A DNA stretch of 64,000 nucleotides, from positions 10,682-74,681 of the forward strand of contig JAPONS010000008.1 of the NCBI GenBank assembly GCA_026713825.1. The letters are read 5' to 3'. This stretch comes from Chloroflexota bacterium (GTDB taxonomy: Bacteria > Chloroflexota > Dehalococcoidia > Lucifugimonadales > UBA1127). Position numbers and translations under genes: made by a program. Below are positions 17,304-63,618 of the stretch, piece by piece. Every line of letters starts with the position of its first letter. Positions within the stretch are counted from its first letter, which is position 1. The notes beneath the pieces are model-generated. The model was not told where the DNA came from. It searched no databases and worked only from the letters and a program-made list of their open reading frames with translations.

Positions 17304-18233
17304 ATGTCAAGCTTGACCCTGCAATCGAAACACCTGCTTTCCGTGGCCGACCTGTCGCCGGCCGAGATCTGCGCCCTCGTGGAGCGCGCCCGCGACATCA
17401 AGCGCACCCCCGACGCGGCAAGACCCCTGCAGGGCAAGACGGTCGCCCTCCTCTTCGAAAAGCCGTCCCTCCGCACCCGCGTCAGCTTCGAGGTCGGCAC
17501 GGCCAACCTCGGCGGCAACTGCCTCTACCTCAGCCCGGCCGAGGTCGGCATCGGCGGCCGCGAGGCCGTCAGCGACGTCGCCCAGGTCCTCTCCCGCTAC
17601 GTCGATTGCATCGTCTACCGCTGCTACTCTCACGCGATGCTTGCGGAGCTCGCCCACTACGCCACCGTCCCCGTCATCAACGCCCTCTCCGACGACGAGC
17701 ACCCCTGCCAGACCCTCGCGGACCTGACAACGGTCCTCGAGCAGCGCGGCTCGTTGCCCGGCACGACCCTCGCCTACATCGGCGATGGCAACAACGTCGC
17801 CCGCAGCCTCGGTCTCGGCTGCGCCGCTGTCGGCATGCACTACCGCATCGCTTCCCCCGAGGGCTACGGCCTCTCGCCCGACGATGAGCGCGCCATCGAG
17901 GCCCTCGCCGCCGCCAACGGTGGCAGCGCCACCTTCCTCCGTGACCCCCGCGAGGCCGTCGCGGGCGCAAACGTCGTCTACACCGACGTATGGGCCAGCA
18001 TGGGCCAGGAGGACGAGGCCGCCGTCCGCAAGGAGGTCTTCCTCGGCTACCAGGTCAACCCTGAGCTCATGGCTCTCGCCGCCCCGGACGCCGTCTTCAT
18101 GCACGACCTGCCCGCCCACTACGGCGAGGAGGTCCCCCACGGCTTCTTGGACGGCCCCCAGTCCGTCGTGTTCGACCAGGCGGAGAACCGCCTGCACGCG
18201 CAGCAGGCCCTGTTGGAGGCCCTTCTTGGCTAG
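17304..18233 (+). CDS. argF: Ornithine carbamoyltransferase
   Basis: ORF trimmed to ATG 17304. ...GKTVALLFEKPSLRTRVSFEVG...HPCQTLADL... carries the SxRTR and HPxQ motifs. Confidence 0.94.
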   Translation: MSSLTLQSKHLLSVADLSPAEICALVERARDIKRTPDAARPLQGKTVALLFEKPSLRTRVSFEVGTANLGGNCLYLSPAEVGIGGREAVSDVAQVLSRYVDCIVYRCYSHAMLAELAHYATVPVINALSDDEHPCQTLADLTTVLEQRGSLPGTTLAYIGDGNNVARSLGLGCAAVGMHYRIASPEGYGLSPDDERAIEALAAANGGSATFLRDPREAVAGANVVYTDVWASMGQEDEAAVRKEVFLGYQVNPELMALAAPDAVFMHDLPAHYGEEVPHGFLDGPQSVVFDQAENRLHAQQALLEALLG

Positions 18234-18279
18234 GGCGGCATCGCCAGAGGAAGCGAATATCGGCCAGGACGCGGGCGTA

Positions 18280-19593
18280 ATGCCCGTGGTCGCCATCGTC
18301 GGCCGCCCAAACGTCGGCAAGTCCACCCTCTTCAACCGCCTGACCGGCCAGCGCCGCGCCGTCGTCGCAGATGAGGCCGGCACCACCCGCGATCGCGTCA
18401 TCACTCCCATGGAGGGCCCCAACCGCAACTTCTTCCTCGTCGACACCGGCGGCATCGACCTCGGCGCGGGCGGCCCCATCGGCTCCAAGGTCTCCCGCCA
18501 GGTCCGCGCCGCCCTCGAGGACGCCGACGTCATCGTCTTCCTGACCGACGCCGTCGACGGCCTCCAGCCCGCCGACACGGAGATCGCCGACTCCCTCCGC
18601 CGCCTCAACGTCCCCATCGTCACCGCCGTCAACAAGAGCGAGGGCACCCGCCGCCGCTTCAACGTCGCCGAGTTCTACGCCCTCGGCCTCAACGACCCCA
18701 TCGCCATCAGCGCCATCAAGGGCGAGGGCATGGCCGACCTCCTCGACGCCGTCGAGGACGAACTGCCCCCCGGCGCCGAGGCTGAGCTCGACGAGGGCTT
18801 CCTCCGCCTCGCCATCGTCGGCCGCCCCAACGTCGGCAAGTCCAGCATCATGAACGCCATCACCGGCGAGGAGCGCGCCATCGTCGACGAGGCCCCCGGC
18901 ACTACCCGCGACTCCCTCGACGCCTGGGTCAGCTACGACGGCAACCCCCTCCTCCTCATCGACACCGCCGGTATGCGCCGCCGCGGCCACATCGTTCCCG
19001 GCCCGGAGAAGTTCAGCGTCCTCCGCTCCCTCCAGTCCATAGAGCGCTGCAACGTCGCCGTCCTCGTCATGGACGCCACGGAGCTCGCCACGGCCCAGGA
19101 CGTCCACGTCGCCGGCTACGTCCTCGAGTCCTACCACGCCATGCTCGTCGCCGTGAACAAGTGGGACCTCGCCCGCGAGCACGAGACGGAGGTCATCCAG
19201 GAGATTCGCAAGAAGCTCCACTGGGCCCCCTACGTGCCCATCCACTTCGTCTCCGCCCTCACCGGCGAGGGCCTCGACGGCCTCCTCACCACCGCGCAGG
19301 AGCTCTACCGCGAGCAGGCCACCGAGGTCGGCGCCGCCGAGCTCAACACCACCATCGTCGAGGCCATGGCCAAGCACCCCCCGCGCTCGCAGGGCCGCCG
19401 TCAGCTCCGCCTCTACCGCGGCGAGCAGAGCCAGGTGCACCCCCTCGGCTTCACCCTCTACGTCAACAACCCGGAGATCGTGCACTTCTCCTACCGCCGC
19501 TACCTGCTGAACACCATCCGCAGCGCCTTCTCCATCCGCCGCGTCCCCATCCGCCTCGACATCCGCAAGGGCGCCAGGAGGCGGTCGCAGTGA
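18280..19593 (+). CDS. der: Ribosome-associated GTPase Der (EngA), two GTPase domains
   Basis: MPVVAIVGRPNVGKSTLFNRL... and a second P-loop LAIVGRPNVGKSSIMNAI. ORF trimmed to ATG 18280. Confidence 0.95.
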   Translation: MPVVAIVGRPNVGKSTLFNRLTGQRRAVVADEAGTTRDRVITPMEGPNRNFFLVDTGGIDLGAGGPIGSKVSRQVRAALEDADVIVFLTDAVDGLQPADTEIADSLRRLNVPIVTAVNKSEGTRRRFNVAEFYALGLNDPIAISAIKGEGMADLLDAVEDELPPGAEAELDEGFLRLAIVGRPNVGKSSIMNAITGEERAIVDEAPGTTRDSLDAWVSYDGNPLLLIDTAGMRRRGHIVPGPEKFSVLRSLQSIERCNVAVLVMDATELATAQDVHVAGYVLESYHAMLVAVNKWDLAREHETEVIQEIRKKLHWAPYVPIHFVSALTGEGLDGLLTTAQELYREQATEVGAAELNTTIVEAMAKHPPRSQGRRQLRLYRGEQSQVHPLGFTLYVNNPEIVHFSYRRYLLNTIRSAFSIRRVPIRLDIRKGARRRSQ

Positions 19594-28344: not shown

Positions 28345-31300
28345 TTACGGGATGAGCACCCCGTCCGCGGTGGCGTAGAGCCAGTAGCCCTTGCCCACCG
28401 TTACCGGCGCCTTCAGGACGACCCGGTCGTTGTCGTCGAACTTGTTGGGGTCGTTCTCGTCCGCGCCGACGGGGTCGGCCTCAACCACAGGATCTGCAGT
28501 CGAATCGGCCTTCACTGCGTCACCGGTGTCGCGTTCCGTGTATGCGCCCATCTGGCACGGCTCGGTCCCGTCCAGCACCTTCTCCGCGTCAGGCTTCTTG
28601 CCGGTGCATGGGTTGGTGTCATCCACGCCCACGGTCACCGTGTCGCCGGGGGTCACGGAGCTCCAGACCCTGGACAGGGTTTCAAAGGTCAGGGCCTTCA
28701 ACCAGCCCGCGTTGGAGCCGGACCTGAGGGTGCCGAAGTAGTCGTCCGCTGCGACGCCCTCAGGGGCGGGCACGGAAATTGTGATCACGGGCACCAGGTT
28801 CCAGCCTTCCACCACTGTGACGGCGGGCGGCTGAATGTTCGCTGAGGCAGAGGTCGTCAGCGCCGGCCGCAACATCTTCAACGGCTGGAAGTTCTCCGTC
28901 CGTACGAAGTAGGCCGTACTGGCCGTCATCGCGACGATGTCGCCCACAAAGTTCCCCGTCTCCGTGTCCCGGCGGGAGAACAACCACGTCTGGTTGACGT
29001 TGTCAAAGGTCATGACAATGCTCACCGGGTGCGTGGGCGGTATCACGCTGTTGATGGCCGGGTTGGCTGGCTGGAAGGGCAGCGAGATCAGGTTCCAGCC
29101 GGGAGACAAGTCGATCTCCACCGGCTTGGGCTTGACCACGTCCCAGGATGCCTTCAGGTCCGCGGATCCGTCGATCTGTGTGTTCCCCGCCTGGTCCACG
29201 GCCTGCACCGTCAGCGTGTAAGCGCCGATCTTGGGGTTCAGCAGCGGAATGGTGAACTTCACGTTGTCCGGCGTGGTGACGCCCGTGGTCAGGTCTATGG
29301 TGCTGGGCTCCGTGGTGCCGTCCGGAAGCCGGATGCTCAGCTTGGCGGAGGTCAGCGTCACCGTCTTGTAGCTGTCCCGCGCGTACTCATCCCCTTCCAT
29401 CGTAAAGTCCACCGTCACGATGAGAGGGTCAACCTGCTCCACGTTGTCGGCGGTGCCGGACTTGTTTGCCACGTCCTTAACGCTGGCAACGTCGAATTGC
29501 GGAGGCACGCCCTTGTTCAGCTTCTTGTCCAACTCAAAGGTGAAGGAGCCGGGGTCGGCCGCGGAATCACTGTCGCCCGCCGTGCTCTCGACCTCACTGG
29601 TGTCCGCGGCCTTCACGTAGACGCTGAACTCTCCGCCGTCGGAGTTCTCATGCGTGTAGGTGTAGCTCATGGAACCCGTCTGCCTCACCGGACTCCTTGC
29701 AGTCGCGCCCTCGGCTTCGGCTTCGGCGTCGCCATTGGCGGCGGCCTCGGTGACGTACACCGTCGGCGTCGCGTTCAGTTGCTCGTCCGTGGTGATCGTG
29801 ACCGTCACCTTGTCGTTGCTCAGGTCCGCGCTCTTGGACAGGTTGAGGTTCGGCCCCAGCTTGTCAACGGCCCTTGTCCGCACGGCGGTCACGGCGTTGC
29901 CGGCCTTGTCCCGGATCTGGGAACCGGCGATGTCCACCCACGGCCTCTCCGTGGAACCCAGGTTGTCCGCCAGAGTCAAGTAGACTCTGTTGCCGACCGT
30001 CCGCACGGACTCCACCGTGTGGCCGCTGACGCTGAAGGCGGCTTCCGTCACGGTGTCGGCGTCGATGCCGCTGCCGGGGGCGGTGCTGTCGGTCTTGCCC
30101 TCGTCCGCGAAGGTGACCTTGATGGAGTTCTTCTGGGCCTTGTCCGCCTTCGTGGTAGCGTTGTAGCCAATGCCCGTCACCACCGGGTTGCCGCTGGCCA
30201 GCGCCGGATTGACGCTGTCTATGGTGATGAGGTTGGTGCCAAGGATCTCATAGGTGTCCTTGGGCGCAGGTTGGCAGGCGGTAAGCTGGTCGGCTGCGAC
30301 CTCGTCATCTTCACCATTCTCCTTGGTTCGGGTTGCAGTAGTAACCGTGGCGGGGGCGGTAGGAGCAGTGCGCGTATAGTCGTCTCTAGCATCAACCGGG
30401 CACTGATAACCGCCCGTTCCGATTAGAGGGGTGGAATCGGCGGCAGCGGAGTCGCTAGGGACATCCTTCACCGCATCGTCAAAGAGCGGGTCGTACGTCT
30501 CTCCCGCCGTTATTTCGTTCGCGACCACGAAAGTGCCGTTTGACCCCGTAAAGGTTACGGACTGGTTGTTGCTCACAAACGTGTTGGTCCCAACCTTCTT
30601 GCTCACTCTGACGCGGCTGCCCAGGAAGGTGTTATCGCTGAGGTTGCCGCTGAATTTGCTGTCGACTATCGTTCCCGCCGCGCTCCCCACGCCGGCAGTG
30701 CCGGAGACGGAGCCGCTGGTCCGCTGCGAGTTGTTGGCCTCGTCTCGCACCTCGAAGTACCACGGCACGTTGGTGGCGATGGCCTGCAGGGCGGTGGAGT
30801 TGAGGGTCTTGCTGACCCGCCAGCCGTCGTCGATCTTGGTGAAGTCGCCCTCGACGAGGTTCACCACGTTGCCCGCGACCACCAGGCGCACGCCGCCCTC
30901 CCTGGTCAAGCTATTGTTTGCGGGAGGATCGCCGTCCGAGGTCAGGATGCCTGCGTCAGACAGGTTCGCACCGAGCCCGTTGTCGCCCGTGAACTTGGCG
31001 GCGAAGCCGGAGACGCTGTCCGTGATGTCCGCGCTGAAGGTGATGTTGGCGTTCCCCTTGACTATGAGGCCGGGAGCAGGGGAACTGGACACCAGGGACG
31101 GCCTTCCGTTGTCCACCCTCACCGTCTTGACGGAGCCGAAGGTGTTGTCGTCGGGTGTGTAGCTCACCTGGATCCGGTTGCCGTTGAAGGCCTTCACCTG
31201 GTAGGCGTTACCGGTGGTGCATTCGCCCTCGTCATAGGCACTGTCGGTGGTGCCGTCACCCGATTCACCGTTGATGTCGCACCTTGCGTCCACCAAGCCG

Positions 31301-31719
31301 CTGCTCTTGTGAACGGCCTCAATGGTTACAAGAGCGGCAATGGGGATGGTCTTCGGGTTCGCGTCCGGCCCGTCTAGCGCTGTGCCGTCCGCGACAGCAA
31401 CCTTTTGCGTCACCCGCGGCAGGTCCAGGTTCTGGATCGTCACCTCGCCATCGGTTACGGCCGCGATTGTAAACAGGTTGTCGCCAGTGGAATTCTCGTC
31501 GGGGGCGCCGGTAGTAGGTTCTTCAGCGTCCGCCGCATTGTCCCCTGACCGGTCATACAGGGTGCAGCCGGCTAGGCTGTTGGAGCAGACAAACGACTGG
31601 GATGGCTCTCCCGGTCCCGGCGTCTGCGCCTGCACCGTCGGCTGCGTGCTCAGGCCCATGACCACCAGCAGCAGCGCAAACGCTGCCAGGGCCGCCGTCA
31701 TCTTGAAGTATCTGTTCAT
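28345..31719 (-). CDS. 1125-aa secreted surface protein, S-layer-like (Ig-like repeats of the SbsA/Big type)
   Basis: ORF trimmed to ATG 31719 behind an AAGGGAAGGA SD. Signal peptide MNRYFKMTAALAAFALLLVVMGLSTQPTVQAQ. Motifs IRDKAGNAV and AVDQAGNTQ in beta-rich repeats, plus GWNLISLP and GWNLVPV near the C-terminus. No TM anchor. Confidence 0.8.
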   Translation of the reverse strand: MNRYFKMTAALAAFALLLVVMGLSTQPTVQAQTPGPGEPSQSFVCSNSLAGCTLYDRSGDNAADAEEPTTGAPDENSTGDNLFTIAAVTDGEVTIQNLDLPRVTQKVAVADGTALDGPDANPKTIPIAALVTIEAVHKSSGLVDARCDINGESGDGTTDSAYDEGECTTGNAYQVKAFNGNRIQVSYTPDDNTFGSVKTVRVDNGRPSLVSSSPAPGLIVKGNANITFSADITDSVSGFAAKFTGDNGLGANLSDAGILTSDGDPPANNSLTREGGVRLVVAGNVVNLVEGDFTKIDDGWRVSKTLNSTALQAIATNVPWYFEVRDEANNSQRTSGSVSGTAGVGSAAGTIVDSKFSGNLSDNTFLGSRVRVSKKVGTNTFVSNNQSVTFTGSNGTFVVANEITAGETYDPLFDDAVKDVPSDSAAADSTPLIGTGGYQCPVDARDDYTRTAPTAPATVTTATRTKENGEDDEVAADQLTACQPAPKDTYEILGTNLITIDSVNPALASGNPVVTGIGYNATTKADKAQKNSIKVTFADEGKTDSTAPGSGIDADTVTEAAFSVSGHTVESVRTVGNRVYLTLADNLGSTERPWVDIAGSQIRDKAGNAVTAVRTRAVDKLGPNLNLSKSADLSNDKVTVTITTDEQLNATPTVYVTEAAANGDAEAEAEGATARSPVRQTGSMSYTYTHENSDGGEFSVYVKAADTSEVESTAGDSDSAADPGSFTFELDKKLNKGVPPQFDVASVKDVANKSGTADNVEQVDPLIVTVDFTMEGDEYARDSYKTVTLTSAKLSIRLPDGTTEPSTIDLTTGVTTPDNVKFTIPLLNPKIGAYTLTVQAVDQAGNTQIDGSADLKASWDVVKPKPVEIDLSPGWNLISLPFQPANPAINSVIPPTHPVSIVMTFDNVNQTWLFSRRDTETGNFVGDIVAMTASTAYFVRTENFQPLKMLRPALTTSASANIQPPAVTVVEGWNLVPVITISVPAPEGVAADDYFGTLRSGSNAGWLKALTFETLSRVWSSVTPGDTVTVGVDDTNPCTGKKPDAEKVLDGTEPCQMGAYTERDTGDAVKADSTADPVVEADPVGADENDPNKFDDNDRVVLKAPVTVGKGYWLYATADGVLIP

Positions 31720-31864
31720 TGTCCTTCCCTTTCGTGGGTGTTTGGGATGTCCCCTCGGCCCCGCCGGGGGAGTGTTCATCTCGGCCTCCCCGCATTCCCT
31801 GCGGGGTCAGCCGTCACGGTCCGGCTCTGGAGCGGGTCCCGCATCGGCTCGCCCAAGTGCGCCT

Positions 31865-45695: not shown

Positions 45696-46784
45696 TTAGG
45701 TCTCCTTGGGAGATTCGTCCTGATCGTTGTCGTCTTCGTCCTCTGACAGTTCCTCGTCCGCTTCGTCCTCTGCCTCCATGTCTTCCACAATGGAGGCGAT
45801 GGGCGCTGGAGGTTCAGCGTTCTTGCCCCAGAAGCTGTCCGGTACAGGCAGGTTGTTCTCCTCAAGCCGGGCTCGTAGTTCCTCCAGCGACTTCTCGCCG
45901 AAGTTGCGAATCTTGAGGAGTTCCTCCGCGGTGCGCTCCAGCACCTCGCCGACTTTGTTGATGCCGGCGCGCTTCAGGCAATTCAGCGTGCGCGAAGAGA
46001 GCTCCAGCTTCTCGACGGTAATGTTGTAAATCTCCGCCGGTATGCCGGCTCCGGGTCCGGACTCTCCACCAGTGTCCTTGCCTGCGCCGATGAGCAGCGC
46101 GCTGTGTTCCATGAGCACTTTGGCAGCCGTATGGACGGCGTCGAGAGGAGAGATGGTCCGGTCAGTCCAGACCTCTAGTACCAATCGCTCATAGTCAGTG
46201 ACTTGTCCGACGCGGGTGTACTCCACACCGAAGTTCACCTTGCGAACAGGGCTGAAGATAGCGTCAACCGGCAGCGTGCCGATGGAGTAGCCGACCGCCT
46301 GTTGCGCCGGTACGTATCCGGTGCCGCGCTCCACGTTGAACTCCATGTTGAGGGTGCCTTCGTCTGAGTCCAGCGTCGCGAGATGTAGGTCGGGGTTTAC
46401 AATCTCAAAGTCGGCCGGAGCGACGATGTCGCCGGCATAGACCTCGCCGGGGCCTCGGGCCTCGAGACGCAAGCGGCCGGGACGCTCCGTGTGGGCGCGC
46501 AGCCGGATGGTCTTCACCCGCTGAATGACCTCCATCACCTCCTCCTTCATGTGGGGAAGGGTGGAGTATTCGTGCAGCACGCCATCAATGCGGACCCACG
46601 TGACAGCGGCACCCGGAATGGAGCTCAACAACACGCGGCGCAGGGGGTTGCCCAGCGTCGTGGCGAAGCCGCGCTCCAGTGGCTCCAGCGTAAACTTGCC
46701 GTAGGTCTCGTCCAGTTCAATGGTCTTGACCTCTGGTTTGGGAACTGCCGGCCCAGGTTGTATGTCCTGGGCTGGCCCAATCAT
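45696..46784 (-). CDS. rpoA: DNA-directed RNA polymerase alpha subunit (with acidic C-terminal tail)
   Basis: ATG 46784 behind a GGAG SD. ...FTLEPLERGFATTLGNPLRRVLLSSIPGAAV... The tail reads EDMEAEDEADEELSEDEDDNDQDESPKET. Confidence 0.96.
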   Translation of the reverse strand: MIGPAQDIQPGPAVPKPEVKTIELDETYGKFTLEPLERGFATTLGNPLRRVLLSSIPGAAVTWVRIDGVLHEYSTLPHMKEEVMEVIQRVKTIRLRAHTERPGRLRLEARGPGEVYAGDIVAPADFEIVNPDLHLATLDSDEGTLNMEFNVERGTGYVPAQQAVGYSIGTLPVDAIFSPVRKVNFGVEYTRVGQVTDYERLVLEVWTDRTISPLDAVHTAAKVLMEHSALLIGAGKDTGGESGPGAGIPAEIYNITVEKLELSSRTLNCLKRAGINKVGEVLERTAEELLKIRNFGEKSLEELRARLEENNLPVPDSFWGKNAEPPAPIASIVEDMEAEDEADEELSEDEDDNDQDESPKET

Positions 46785-54434: not shown

Positions 54435-55130
54435 CTACACCTCGACGGCCGTGCGCTCCTGCACCCGGGCGAAGGGCATCCCCATCAAGTCGAGGAGCCG
54501 CAGCGCCTCCTGGTCCGTCTTGGCAGTGGTGATAATGTTGACCTGCATTCCGCGAAGCCGGTCTATTTGGTTGTAGTCGATCTCTGGAAACACAATCTGC
54601 TCGCGCAAGCCAAGCGCGTAGTTCCCACGTCCATCGAAGGCCGATCGGGACACCCCGCGGAAGTCGCGGATACGGGGCAGCGCGGTGTTAAACAGCTTGT
54701 CGAGGAACGTGTACATCCGGTCGCCGCGCAGCGTGACCATGACACCAACTGCCTGGCCCTCACGCAGTTTGAAGCCCGCCACGGAGCGGCGCGCCTTCCG
54801 TGAGATGGGCCGTTGGCCCGTGATCGCCGCGATGTCTCCCATGGTGGCGTCCATGGCGCGCCCATTGGTCAAGGCCTCACCCAGTCCGACGTTGATGACA
54901 ACTTTCTCGACCTTCGGAATCTCCATAGCGTTGGCGTAGGAAAACTCCTGCTGCATCTGCGGGGCCAGCTCCTCACGGTAGCGCGCCAGCAGCCTGGGCA
55001 GCACTCGGCCCTGCGCAGAGGGCTTCGCAGTGGCCTGCGTCTGGGCGCGGTTGCGCCCCCGGGCCCTGCCGCCTCCGCTGGAGGACTCTTGCGGTTCTTC
55101 TATTCGATCGGTTGGTTGCACTTCTTGCAT
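54435..55130 (-). CDS. rplE: 50S ribosomal protein L5 (start uncertain: ATG 55130 with a 42-aa N-terminal extension, or GTG 55004)
   Basis: The core [43 protein letters not shown]... is canonical L5. The only upstream ATG overlaps rplX by 31 nt. Confidence 0.9.
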
Positions 55131-55447: not shown

Positions 55448-55822
55448 CTAAAAGACTTCCGGCGCCAGGGAAACGATGCGCATGAACCCCTTCTCCCGCA
55501 GCTCGCGGGCCACCGGCCCGAAAATGCGCGTGCCTATGGGGTTCAGCGCGTCCGTCAGCATGACTGCCGCGTTCTCGTCAAAGCGGATGTGGGTGCCGTC
55601 GGGCCGACGTGTGTTCTTCACAACCCGGACAATGACGGCCTTGACGACCTTCCCCGCCCGCACCGCGTCGGGCGCGTTGGGGATGGCGTCCTTGATCGAG
55701 CACGTGATGATGTCGCCGAGCCCTGCGTAGCGTCTGCGGCTCGAACCGGGGATACCAATGCACATCACCTGCTTGGCCCCGGAGTTGTCCGCAACAGCCA
55801 ACCGTGACATATGCTGAATCAT
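55448..55822 (-). CDS. rplN: 50S ribosomal protein L14
   Basis: [27 protein letters not shown]... Confidence 0.97.
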
Positions 55823-56661
55823 GCGTCCTCCTTCCGGGGAGCTTCCCCGTCCTTTGAGGACGCCTCTTCCGTCTCAGTCACGGGCTCCTCCGCGGCTGCC
55901 TCAACTTCAGCGCTCTCAGGCTCAGATTCTGTGACTCCTGCCTCAGCTTCTATGTTTTCAGGCTCCACTTCCGCGACCTCAGCATCAATGCTTTCGGGCT
56001 CCGCGTCCGCGACCTCTGCCTCAGTCTCTGCAGTTGCACTCTCAGCTTCGACTGGTTCGTCTGCGTCCAGTTCGGCTACAGGTTCCTCGCTGGGTTCTTC
56101 ACTCACCAATTCCTGCGCGTCCTCAGAACTGGGGCTTTCTGGCTGCTCGTCCAGGGCTTCATCGCGGATGGACTCTGGATCTTCGACCTCGTCTACCTCA
56201 TCTGCTACGACGGGTGCGTCATCATCGACCTCGGCCTCAGCGGTCACGGCCTCGTCTTCGCCCTCCGCCTCGTGGGTGGCCACCACGGTCTCGACGTCAG
56301 CCGCGGGATCGGGCGATTTCTCAGTGTCGGCCACCGCAACCGGCGCCTCGATTACCTCAACGGCCTCTGCCATCACGGCCTCTGCCTCCGCGACTTCCTC
56401 CGGGCGCAGCATTTCATGTCGCTGTAGTACAGCCTGCAGGCGGAACCGCTTGGTCTTGGACACCGGGCGGCACTCGATCACCCGCACTAGGTCGCCGTAC
56501 TGCGACTCGCCCAGCGGATCGTGGACGTAGAGCATTGTCTTGCGGCGCAGCGCCTTTCCGTACACGGCGTGGTGGCGCACGCGGTCTACGGCCACCACCA
56601 AGGTGTTCTGCATCTTGGCGCTGATTACCCGCCCGACGTAGCTTCTCCGATTCATTGCCAT
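55819..56661 (-). CDS. rpsQ: 30S ribosomal protein S17 with ~195-aa acidic C-terminal extension
   Basis: The N-terminal ~88 aa are canonical S17 ([45 protein letters not shown]...[17 protein letters not shown]). The same frame continues through a Glu/Asp/Ala/Val-rich tail to a TGA overlapping the rplN ATG (ATGA). Confidence 0.9.
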
Positions 56662-56874: not shown

Positions 56875-57306
56875 CTAGTTCACCGTATGGAGGAAGTAGT
56901 CCTCCCGGGTTACGATCTTGGTCTGCACCGGAAGCTTGGCCGCGGCCAGCCTCAGTCCTTCCTTCGCCTGCTCCTCAGACACGCCGGAAAGCTCGAAGAG
57001 CATCCGACCGCGTTTGGCGACGGCCACGTAGTGGTCGACGCCGCCCTTGCCCTTGCCCATCCGGGTCTCCAAAGGTTTCTTGGTCACGGGCTTGTCTGCA
57101 AATACACGAATCCACAGCTGGCCACCGCGGCGGAGATAGCGCACGACAGCGCGGCGCGCCGCCTCTATCTGTCGAGCCGTGAGCCAAGCTGTGTCTAAGG
57201 TCTTGAGGCCGTAGTCGCCAAAGTGCAGGGTTGCACCGGAGGTTGCCGCACCCTTACGGCGTCCCCGGTGCACCTTGCGGTACTTGAGCCGCTTAGGTTG
57301 CTGCAT
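56875..57306 (-). CDS. rplP: 50S ribosomal protein L16
   Basis: [24 protein letters not shown]... Confidence 0.96.
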
Positions 57307-58057
57307 CGGGCTCTCCTTCTGCGGCGGCCTCCGCTCGGTCGATAACCTTCTGGTCTGCAGCCTCGTCCTCAGCTCGCATCGTTACTTCTATAGGGCCAAG
57401 GTCCTCAGCCGCCTCCTGCTCGCGCAACGGAACTATGTCGCCCTTGTAGACCCACACTTTTACTCCGATGCGGCCCATCGTCGTGCTTGCCTCGCTGATG
57501 GCGAAGTCGACGTCCGCGCGGATGGTGTGGAGGGGCACCCGCCCCATCATGACCTTCTCCCGTCGAGCGATGTCAGCGCCACCCAACCGTCCGCTCACGA
57601 TGATCTTGACGCCCTGAACGCCCGCTTGCATGGATCGCGTCGCCGTCTGCTGCATGGCGCGGCGGTGCGCCACGCGGCGCTCGAGCTGCTCGGCGCAGCT
57701 GCGGGCCACCAGAGCAGCCACTGTTTCCGGCTGCCGGACCTCCTGCACGGAAATCCGGACACGCCGCTCCGTCAGGGCCTCCAGCGCCTGCCGCATCTCC
57801 TCCACCCGCTGACCCTGGCGGCCAATGACGATGCCGGGACGGGCGGTCCAGATGACTACTGAAACGTCCTGGGGCCCCCGCTCAATCTCCACCTGCGGGA
57901 TGCCGGCCTCCGGGTAGCGGGTCAGGATCGCGTTGCGCAGCCGCAGGTCTTCCTGCAGCGTGTTGCGATAGTCCTGCTTTTTGGCGGCGAACCACCGGCT
58001 GTCCCAGTCCTTGATTATGCCGAGACGGAAACCAATAGGGTGCGTCTTATGTCCCAC
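57293..58057 (-). CDS. rpsC: 30S ribosomal protein S3
   Basis: GTG start. [23 protein letters not shown]... Acidic C-terminal tail. Confidence 0.96.
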
Positions 58058-61236: not shown

Positions 61237-61545
61237 CTATGTCTTGATAGTGATGTCGACGCCGGCTGCAACGTTCAGCCGGGAGAGCGCTTCCAAGGTG
61301 CGGCCCGTAGACTCCAGGATGTCCACCAGCCGCTTGTGAGTCCGAAGCTCAAAGTGCTCCCGCGAGTCTTTATCGATATGCGGTGATCGAATGACGCAGA
61401 AGCGCTGCTTGTGCGTCGGCAGCGGAACAGGCCCGGCAACGACTGCACCCGTGCGCTCCGCAGTCTCCACGATCTGCTGTGCGGACAGGTCCAGCGCCCG
61501 ATGGTCAAACGCCTTCAGGATGATGCGAATTTTCTGGCCGGGCAT
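61237..61545 (-). CDS. rpsJ: 30S ribosomal protein S10
   Basis: [34 protein letters not shown]... Confidence 0.97.
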
Positions 61546-61569
61546 GGCAAAAACCTACCTTACACCACG

Positions 61570-63618
61570 TTAGACACGGACAAGCATCTGCTGCGCCACG
61601 GAATCCGGCACCTCTTCGTAGTGGTGGAACTCCATGGAATGACTCGCTCTGCCCTGAGTAAGCGACCGGACGGTTGTGGCGTACCCGAACATCTCGGCCA
61701 GGGGAACCAGCGCGCGAATGGTCTGGACATCCCCAACACCTTCGATGTTCTGCACCCGCGCCCGCTTCCCGGAAAGGTCTCCAAGGACCTCGCCCAGAAA
61801 CTCACCCGGGGTGACGACTTCCGTCTGAATGTATGGCTCCATGAGGACGGGCTTTGCTTTCCGCAAGCCCTCCTTCACAGCCATAGAACCAGCAATCTTA
61901 AAAGCGATCTCGGAGGAATCGACGGGGTGATAACTGCCGTCTACCAAGGAGACCTTGATATCCACCACAGGATAGCCCGCTATCGCTCCGCTGTCCAGTG
62001 CTTCCTGTACACCCGCACGCACAGGGTTTATGTACTCCCTCGGCACGACGCCACCAACGATCTTGTCCTCGAAGACAAAACCGCCGCCGCTCTCCAACGG
62101 CTCGATCTCCAGCCACACGTGGCCGAATTGGCCGTGGCCACCAGTCTGACGCACGAAGCGGCCTTCGACACGTACATGCTGCCTGATGGCCTCGCGGTAG
62201 GACACTCGCGGACGGCCCACCTGCGCCTGAACGTTGAATTCGCGACGCAGCCGGTCGACTAGCACGTCCAAGTGAAGCTCACCCATGCCGGAGATGATGG
62301 TCTGTCCACTCTCCTTGTCGTAACGCACCACAAATGTGGGGTCCTCGTCCGCCAGCTTGCGGAGGGACTCCTCCAATCGCTCTTGGTCTGCCTGCGTCCG
62401 CGGCTCCACGGATACAGAGATGACCGGGTCCGGGAAGCTCGGGGGCTCCAGCACCACCGGCGCACTGCCGTCGCAGACAGTCTCGCCGGTAAAGGTGTTC
62501 TTCAGGCCCACCACCGCGCCAATCTGCCCAGCGTTCAGCGCGGGTACGTCCTCACGGTGGTTCGCGTGCATGAGTACAAGGCGTGCGATGCGCTCATCCG
62601 TCTCCTTGGACGCGTTGTAGACATAGGAGCCAGCCTTGAGCTGCCCCGAGTACACCCGCACGAAAACCAAGCGCCCGATGTACGGGTCCGCAGCGACCTT
62701 GAAGGCCAGCGCAGCCAGCGATTCCGACGGGTCCGTAGCCCGAATGATGGGCTCCTGAGTGCGCGGGTCCATGCCCTCTACCGACGGCACGTCCAACGGG
62801 GAAGGCAGATAGTCGATGACCGCGTCTAGTAGCGGGTGAATGCCTCGATTTCGGAGCGCTGTGCCGCAGAGGACTGGAACGAGGATGTTGCTCAAGGTGG
62901 CCCTGCGAAGCGCGGCGACCAATTCGTCCTCCGAGAAGTCCTCGCCTTCAAGGTACTTCTCTAGGAGTGCGTCGTCGGTCTCTGCCACACGCTCCATCAA
63001 CAGGTCACGATATTTGGCGGCCTCGTCCTGCAATTCGGCGGGAATGGGCGCCTCTGTAGGCGCGCCAACCTCGTCACTATAGAGCAGCGCCTTCTGCCGC
63101 ACCAAGTCGACCATTCCTCGGAAGGTGTTCTCCGCACCAATTGGCAACTGCACGGGAACCGGGCGAGCCGAGAGCCGATCACGGATCATGTCGACAGTTC
63201 GGGCAAAGTCAGCGCCCGGACGGTCCATCTTGTTCACAAGGCAGATACGAGGCACCTCGTACTTGTTGGCCTGTCGCCACACAGTCTCGGACTGCGGCTG
63301 CACGCCAGCCACCGCGTCGAAGATGACGACGCCGCCGTCGAGCACTCGCAGACTCCGCTCTACTTCTGCGGTGAAGTCCACGTGGCCGGGGGTGTCGATG
63401 ATATTGACGTCGTGTCCGTTCCACTCGCAGGCCGTGGCGGCCGCGGTGATGGTTATGCCGCGCTCGCGCTCCTGCGGCATCCAGTCCATGACGGTATTGC
63501 CGTCGTCGACGTTGCCGAGCCGGTGGGTCCGGCCCGCGAAAAAGAGCACACGTTCAGTGACCGTCGTCTTGCCAGCGTCGATATGCGCAATGAATCCTAT
63601 GTTGCGAATGCGATCCAA
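61570..63618 (-). CDS. fusA: Elongation factor G
   Basis: TTG start. ...[25 protein letters not shown]...[21 protein letters not shown]... 682 aa. Confidence 0.96.

Follow-up and report, generated by a model that had tools for sequence, protein, structure and literature searches.

Canonical bacterial ribosomal protein uS17, as in Escherichia coli and Bacillus subtilis, is a protein of 80–88 amino acid residues (aa) with an oligonucleotide/oligosaccharide-binding (OB)-fold core, it is encoded between the genes of L29 and L14, and it ends ∼2–5 residues past the last β-strand. Solved bacterial S17 chains comprise 76–105 aa, and 135 aa in Mycobacterium tuberculosis, where the protein carries an N-terminal extension. 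Here, the rpsQ gene (uS17) of a Chloroflexota bacterium was analyzed, which is located in a stretch of 64,000 nucleotides (nt) of contig JAPONS010000008.1 (GenBank assembly GCA_026713825.1, positions 10,682 to 74,681 of the forward strand), the whole of which is referred to below as the window. The encoded protein shares the family, the OB-fold core and the L29–L14 position with canonical uS17; unlike canonical uS17, it adds 195 residues at the C-terminus, and the isoelectric point (pI) passes from ∼11 to ∼4. With 280 aa, it is far longer than any S17 of solved structure.

Lineage-specific extensions of ribosomal proteins are already known, and annotation pipelines already name proteins of the present kind “S17”. 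The uS17 of Thermus thermophilus (105 aa) has a helix directly after the OB core, as does the window S17; its C-terminal extension is short and basic and, unlike that of the window protein, is without an acidic low-complexity stretch. In the Foldseek comparison with Thermus uS17, 98–102 columns including the helix were aligned with an overall root-mean-square deviation (RMSD) of 9–10 Å, so that the orientation of the helix in the free model differs between the two, and no likeness in sequence to the Thermus extension was found, the phmmer alignments stopping at query residue ∼83. A helix after the core was also found by Foldseek in mitochondrial uS17. The solved uS17 proteins of Actinomycetota (Mycobacterium smegmatis, M. 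tuberculosis, and Cutibacterium acnes) also carry a lineage-specific extension; this is N-terminal, with a basic segment that binds the 16S rRNA helices h7/h9 in solved ribosomes (PMC10085706), whereas the window extension is C-terminal, has only six Lys and Arg residues and contains no basic segment. No solved S17 with an acidic C-terminal tail was found by comparison with the PDB, no solved Chloroflexota ribosome was found in the searches made, and full-text searches of the literature returned no description of acidic C-terminal tails on bacterial S17. The L2 protein of the window was about equidistant from its PDB counterparts in Firmicutes, Thermus, Deinococcus and Mycobacterium. Acidic, flexible C-terminal appendages are known from the SSB C-terminus, from the ribosomal stalk proteins and from the poly-Glu tail added to bS6 by RimK. 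Such appendages either fall far short of the window tail in length or end in a conserved tip with proven protein binding, whereas the conserved tip of the window tail would be better explained by RNA. With the coupling hairpins of ribosomal protein operons that occlude a Shine–Dalgarno (SD) sequence, the window locus shares an ATGA overlap, the location of the SD inside the upstream open reading frame (ORF) and a predicted stem in which the SD is paired. In E. coli, rpsQ is the last gene of the S10 operon, and the spc operon begins at rplN under a promoter of its own; in the window, by contrast, rpsQ overlaps rplN, and a scan of the coding strand for promoter-like sites between or within the two genes was negative.

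The rpsQ gene of the window was found to be one ORF of 280 codons plus stop, without an internal stop codon (55819–56661, minus strand). It starts directly after the stop codon of rpmC (L29, 56662–56859) and is followed by rplN (L14, 124 aa; 55448–55822, minus strand), whose product starts with MIQHM, matches Pfam PF00238 with 164.6 bits and is identical to NCBI MCY4623549.1; the order rpmC–rpsQ–rplN in the S10/spc cluster is kept in relatives. Pfam PF00366 (Ribosomal_S17) matched residues 10–75 with 81 bits (cut-off 25.9) and NCBIfam NF004123 scored 86 (cut-off 74), while TIGR03635, at 87.1, scored slightly below its cut-off of 88.7. In an AlphaFold (AF2) model built from a 118-sequence alignment, the core (aa 1–85; 56407–56661, minus strand; pI 10.9, 9.9 kDa) contained five β-strands, at residues 7–14, 20–30, 37–47, 58–63, and 73–80, with a predicted local distance difference test score (pLDDT) of 87–98, and Foldseek superposed the core on solved bacterial uS17 chains with an RMSD of 0.7–1.2 Å over ∼80 residues. 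The protein has no N-terminal extension, as the core begins at residue 5–10. The rpsQ gene was thereby shown to be a genuine uS17 gene of the Chloroflexota bacterium.

The remainder of the frame, aa 86–280 with the stop codon, corresponds exactly to positions 55819–56406. Its 195 residues comprise 55 Glu, 19 Asp, 38 Ala, 24 Val, and 16 Pro, and the 74 acidic residues stand against six Lys/Arg; the pI is 4.05 compared with 10.9 for the core, and the mass of the protein rises from 9.9 kDa for the core to 30.4 kDa in full. The GC content at third codon positions (GC3) is 0.63 in the tail and 0.75–0.83 in the adjoining genes. Tandem Repeats Finder located a 36-nt (12-aa) tandem repeat of 2.3 copies (55941–56023, minus strand; period 36, 82% matches, score 110), the third, partial copy of which starts with AEAG. 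An earlier interpretation made from the letters of the window and their translations (the sequence-only reading) had described an S17 frame running on without interruption into a tail of ∼195 aa rich in Glu, Asp, Ala, Val, and Pro, with loose internal repeats and a near tripling of the protein mass; the ORF, the counted composition, the presence of the peptide that it quoted, the repeat unit and the masses all agree with this description. It had also called the tail acidic and probably disordered, which holds for aa 105–280 and fails for aa 87–104, where a conserved helix is predicted with confidence.

This post-core helix (aa 87–104; 56350–56403, minus strand) reached block means of pLDDT of 83–89 for aa 81–100 and 68 for aa 101–110, and all members of the close clade conserve it, with a ratio of nonsynonymous to synonymous substitution rates (omega) of 0.02–0.03. 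Many more distant S17 proteins, some of them only 98–118 aa long, carry a related E-h-x-E-h-x-P-x-E-h motif after the core. The hyper-acidic tail proper (aa 105–280, 176 aa; 55822–56349, minus strand) showed a pLDDT of 45–54 with no secondary structure predicted by AlphaFold, a charged fraction of 0.415, a net charge per residue of −0.358 and not a single aromatic residue. The sole conserved part of this distal tail is its last ∼16 residues, which read EEASS(E/K)DGExPRKEDA in the close clade. The protein was thus shown to be composed of a basic OB-fold core, a conserved helix, a disordered polyanionic stretch of ∼160 aa and a short conserved end.

The 280-aa S17, tried also with three alternative starts, had no exact entry in the protein collection. 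The proteins adjoining it matched NCBI MCY4623546–MCY4623560 exactly, and S17 itself would be MCY4623550 by accession numbering alone. Nine proteins of this region (IF1, S10, L14, S19, L29, S14, L16, S13, and S3) were identical to NCBI nr entries between MCY4623534 and MCY4623560, all of which carry the name of a Chloroflexi or Chloroflexota bacterium, in agreement with a metagenome-assembled Chloroflexota genome. An antisense ORF (55811–56530, plus strand; 239 aa, Ser/Ala-rich) was rejected as the mirror of GAR/GCN codons, the codon-position GC pattern supporting the frame of rpsQ on the minus strand.

The protein search returned a tight clade of S17 proteins with cores 87–96% identical to that of the window. 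When S17 lengths were compared across related genomes, as the sequence-only reading had proposed, the in-frame clade members (P0001–P0005, P0011, P0014, and P0019) were 165–291 aa long as called and all had an acidic tail, and two further, split genes implied lengths of ∼306–318 aa. The length differences between intact rpsQ genes of the clade were all in frame. The number of nonsynonymous substitutions per site (dN) and omega were estimated by the Nei–Gojobori method, the omega values of the tail being taken from the two least saturated comparisons. In the core, dN was 0.03–0.06 and omega 0.04–0.09; in the tail, dN was 0.39–0.52, about 10 times that of the core, and omega was 0.35 (window and P0005) and 0.41 (P0001 and P0004). 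For the last ∼16 residues, the pairs with a full 17-codon comparison gave an omega of 0–0.27, below that of the tail. S17 tails differed even between contigs whose L14 protein is identical to that of the window: one such contig had unrelated acidic sequence over the last ∼50 residues, and another had a few substitutions. As shown by these comparisons, the acidic stretch is lengthened and shortened by duplications and deletions that keep the frame, and its sequence evolves rapidly; the 36-nt tandem repeat and the fourfold repeats in the S17 of P0006 point to expansion by slippage. What was kept despite the change in sequence was the open frame, the high acidic content and the near absence of basic residues, which suggests selection on composition rather than on sequence; the difference between tail and core in omega and in dN argues for composition-level selection as well.

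To define how widely such tails occur, the core alone (aa 1–90) was searched with HMMER against 1.84 billion cluster representatives, and 4091 S17 proteins were found at E ≤ 0.001. Among the best 150 of these 4091, a C-terminal extension of at least 40 aa was present in 74 and was at least 25% Asp + Glu in 46, with an acidic fraction of 0.25–0.41 and a basic fraction mostly ≤0.05; 17 carried an N-terminal extension of at least 40 aa. The window tail is among the longest in these 150, together with those of P0001 (198 residues past the core) and P0005 (208 residues); three proteins of 409–583 aa are longer still and are probably fusions or mis-calls. The acidic C-terminal tail of S17 is therefore a lineage trait, and the window copy lies near its long end. 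A contig scan with patterns taken from this exact S17 returned only distant S17 proteins of Actinomycetota and archaea. The N-terminally extended type occurs in Actinomycetota. One of the contigs, from a metagenome-assembled genome (MAG) of Thermoleophilaceae (L001, 2497–3225, plus strand), carries the gene of an S17 of 242 aa, ∼165 aa of which form an N-terminal extension that begins with an acidic, Ala-, Pro-, and Glu-rich part and continues with a basic one, in a mirror image of the Chloroflexota tail; P0036, P0043, P0049, P0084, and P0099 have the same layout. Judged from these sequences, S17 has acquired an acidic low-complexity arm at one terminus or the other in different phyla. The 90% cluster of the S10 protein includes a “SAR202 cluster bacterium” protein.

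At the 3′ end of the gene, the stop codon of rpsQ (TGA, 55819–55821) overlaps the start codon of rplN (ATG, 55820–55822) as ATGA (55819–55822, minus strand), which can be read directly from the window, and the 4-nt overlap was present in seven relatives, i.e., in all of those with rplN on the contig. Given this overlap, the S10 and spc clusters are apparently transcribed as a single unit. The SD of rplN, AAGGAGG (55827–55833, minus strand), lies within the last rpsQ codons (Lys-Glu-Asp) of the sequence AAG GAG GAC GCA TGA and is conserved in relatives. According to the RNA folds and the alignment, a hairpin is predicted in which the 5′ arm GCGUCCUC (55856–55863, minus strand), made up of the Ala-Ser-Ser codons of the conserved ASS motif, pairs with the 3′ arm GAGGACGC (55823–55830, minus strand), made up of the Glu-Asp-Ala codons, which covers most of the SD. 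Read in reverse complement, the Ala-Ser-Ser codons (GCG UCC UC.) match GAG GAC GC exactly, giving a stem of 8 bp. The 75-nt hairpin segment had a minimum free energy of −29.9 kcal/mol (z = −3.6), and 1 of 200 shuffled sequences was as stable. The perfect 8-bp stem was found in 9 of the 12 sequences examined, 92% of the cells of the stem were paired in an alignment of eight sequences, and the third codon positions of Ala, Ser, Glu, and Asp, which pair together, were conserved despite a proportion of synonymous differences of 0.45–0.77 in the core. Within the subclade of the window, the conserved Gly…Pro-Arg codons add an inner stem of GGGG paired with CCCC, and variation is seen in the residues that lie between the two stems. 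No compensatory changes occurred in the eight-sequence alignment, in which four of the eight pairs are invariant; covariation gave no support for the hairpin because the stem is nearly invariant.

The end peptide was not shared by the more distant acidic-tailed S17 proteins among the best 150 of the 4091, which have only a K, R or G near the very end, in keeping with the needs of an SD. The conserved end ASSxDGExPRKEDA is thus probably kept, as far as the sequences indicate, as an RNA hairpin with the SD of rplN and not as a peptide motif, the stem over the SD being predicted from folding and conservation. In the proposed mechanism, a ribosome completing S17 would melt the stem and so free the SD of L14, which would be translated only then. 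The ATGA, which the sequence-only reading had rightly located and had taken as the geometry of coupling to rplN, would accordingly be one part of a larger predicted device that includes the hairpin. On the coding strand, a scan in and around the tail and between rpsQ and rplN found no promoter-like or terminator-like site, and SD-like motifs (GGAGG, AGGAG, GAGG, GGAG, and AGGA) in the tail did not differ from synonymous-codon shuffles. The end of rpsQ would be dual-coded, for peptide on the one hand and for SD and hairpin on the other, a clear case of an RNA-level constraint that resembles a conserved peptide motif.

Our best guess for the tail itself, to which we give a probability of roughly 55%, is a charge shield or entropic bristle whose composition is under selection. 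In the 30S subunit, uS17 lies on the solvent side of the body, across from uS12 and adjoining h21 and uS8 (PMC11711686). The helix at aa 87–104 would anchor the C-terminus near the S17 core on this side, and the acidic chain of aa 105–280, with a net charge of ∼−63 over 176 residues, would likely reach ∼10 nm. Before assembly, the polyanion would mask the very basic RNA-binding core and limit stray binding to RNA and DNA as well as aggregation; on the finished subunit, a negative cloud would repel other polyanions and ribosomes. A broader proposal, which we make only tentatively, is that the tail constitutes a functional polyanion module which is tethered to the ribosome and is characteristic of Chloroflexota, and to which some Actinomycetota have a convergent counterpart at the N-terminus; it would serve S17 as a built-in chaperone and specificity filter while the 30S subunit is assembled, or else tune the surface charge of the ribosome and so control ribosome–ribosome, ribosome–nucleoid or cation interactions. 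As a rule, an extension of a ribosomal protein is basic and threads into rRNA or binds it. If the proposal holds, the module would be a rare strongly negative extension of a bacterial ribosomal protein: the S17 arm, disordered, of ∼20 kDa and with a net charge of ∼−68 on a primary 16S-binding protein, represents the opposite design, and it recurs across a large, mostly uncultured lineage. If functional, it would provide built-in handling of a very basic assembly protein or set the surface charge of the small subunit.

The shield reading is favored by the persistence of acidic tails across many lineages, by strains with identical L14 that keep equally acidic tails, by an omega below 1 and by the convergent acidic arm at the other terminus in another phylum. 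Several observations weigh against it. The charge of the tail goes far beyond what would neutralize the core (net ∼+11); its length varies threefold in close relatives, which fits a weak, dosage-insensitive or absent role; and the relaxed codon usage and fast turnover are also expected of a spacer that is merely tolerated, while an omega below 1 in low-complexity sequence may reflect only selection against harmful residues. Such a tolerated spacer is the main rival, although we consider it rather unlikely. It would be a functionless product of slippage in GAR/GCN-rich codons at a solvent-exposed C-terminus; stop codons and frameshifts would not truncate it, as L14 is made only if ribosomes reach the ATGA and melt the hairpin, and the acidic, Ala-, Pro-, and Val-rich composition would be the least harmful option beside rRNA. 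The hypervariable length, the tandem duplication, the rapid divergence of tails between strains with one and the same L14, and the strict stop/start overlap with an SD-occluding stem in the clade are all compatible with this, as is the GC3 of the tail. The deletion bias of bacteria, however, should purge a useless insert of ∼500 nt from a highly expressed operon, and the acidic tails in 46 of the 150 nearest S17 representatives, the similar arm at the opposite terminus in Thermoleophilaceae and tail omega values below neutral speak against a spacer. The conserved last ∼16 residues, with their lower omega, could instead be taken as a linear motif, EEASSxDGExPRKEDA, on an acidic tether that recruits a partner (a kinase, helicase, protease or hibernation factor) to the 30S subunit, in likeness to the SSB C-terminal tip or the tails of stalk proteins. 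A docking arm of this kind is improbable, since the conserved residues coincide with the arms of the 8-bp stem, the inner GGGG/CCCC stem and the SD (Lys-Glu), since residues in the loops between the stems vary freely while paired third codon positions are conserved, and since more distant acidic tails share no peptide beyond the terminal K, R or G. A halophile-style acidic proteome was also considered and rejected, as the non-ribosomal proteins of the window are of ordinary pI, mostly ∼4.3–6.8.

It could also be supposed that a sequencing or assembly error had removed the true stop of S17, or that S17 had been fused to an unrelated ORF. Acidic repeat regions are error-prone, short-read contigs often break within the S17 tail, and two relatives (P0007 and P0009) have tails split by frameshifts on long-read contigs of only 8× and 17× coverage, respectively. 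Among the database S17 proteins, P0006–P0009 have Arg-rich ends and appeared to be counter-examples, and the DNA of P0007 and P0009 was examined. In both, the acidic sequence goes on in another frame for more than 100 codons past an apparent indel, and the resumed frame ends in …PRKEDA* overlapping the ATG of L14; the 922- and 955-nt spans correspond to S17 proteins of ∼306–318 aa, with longer tails, and the frame breaks are most likely assembly indels. No relative was found with a stop right after the S17 core, and eight independent genes were read through in frame to …KEDA* or the variant …KDDA*. The contigs of the relatives come from different samples and assemblers, one of them being a circular contig of 2.54 Mb; P0005 and P0011 were each recovered from two separate samples, and a 1412-nt contig of another assembly (GCA_001753035.1) was 100% identical to the window over the rpsQ end and all of rplN. 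Neither a Pfam domain nor an internal start signal of a second gene was detected in the ORF. An artifact is therefore extremely unlikely, and both it and the fused-gene reading were rejected on the shared layout in relatives, the lack of a second domain and the lack of promoter-like or terminator-like sites; the view of the sequence-only reading that neither a frameshift nor a separate ORF is involved thus stands, the same layout with the 4-nt overlap being found across close relatives.

S17 tails break short-read assemblies and attract frameshifts in long-read ones, so that truncated or mis-called copies of S17, which is used as a marker gene, are frequent in MAGs. Three short-read contigs with the same L14 protein (L015, 1–208; L016, 1–45; L017, 1–101) end inside the S17 tail. 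On two low-coverage long-read contigs (L018, 552–1473; L019, 1201–2155), frameshifts give an Arg-rich false C-terminus and a small “hypothetical” ORF.

Acidic C-termini were also observed on other proteins of the window. The C-terminus of S3 (aa ∼212–254; 57293–57430, minus strand) forms an acidic tail of ∼40 aa, with 35% Asp + Glu in its most acidic 40-residue stretch; the length of 254 aa recurs in relatives, and the tail is a much smaller version of that of S17. RpoA, the RNA polymerase alpha subunit, contains all three of its Pfam domains, the C-terminal one extending to aa ∼314, and then an acidic tail of ∼50 aa (aa ∼315–367; 45696–45860, minus strand) with 47% Asp + Glu over the last 40 residues.

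Apparent N-terminal extensions were found on two proteins. That of L5 (rplE; 54435–55130, minus strand) comprises ∼50–65 aa and is rich in Gly, Ser, Arg, and Gln. In the 231-aa form, the Pfam L5 domain begins at residue 67, and the ATG lies 31 nt inside the end of L24 (rplX), with an overlap at 55100–55130; this form occurs as a called gene in public data, and the L5 proteins of relatives are called at 188–246 aa depending on the start chosen. The ORF of the Der/EngA GTPase (17785–19593, plus strand) is 602 aa long with the GTPase match beginning at residue 167, and its first ∼160 aa could be either a real N-terminal extension or the result of an over-long ORF call.

Neither in the window (61237–63618, minus strand) nor in a related circular genome (L005, 1–1424) does a tuf gene separate fusA (EF-G) from rpsJ (S10), which comes directly after it. 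An ORF of 1144 aa (28345–31779, minus strand; pI 4.4) has a coding-like codon-position GC pattern (GC3 0.84) and no match in Pfam or NCBIfam. GC3 of the predicted genes is ∼0.85–0.95 in the first part of the window (1–35000), which contains the genes of haem biosynthesis and DnaJ, among others, and ∼0.70–0.83 in the part with the ATP synthase and ribosomal protein genes (35000–64000).

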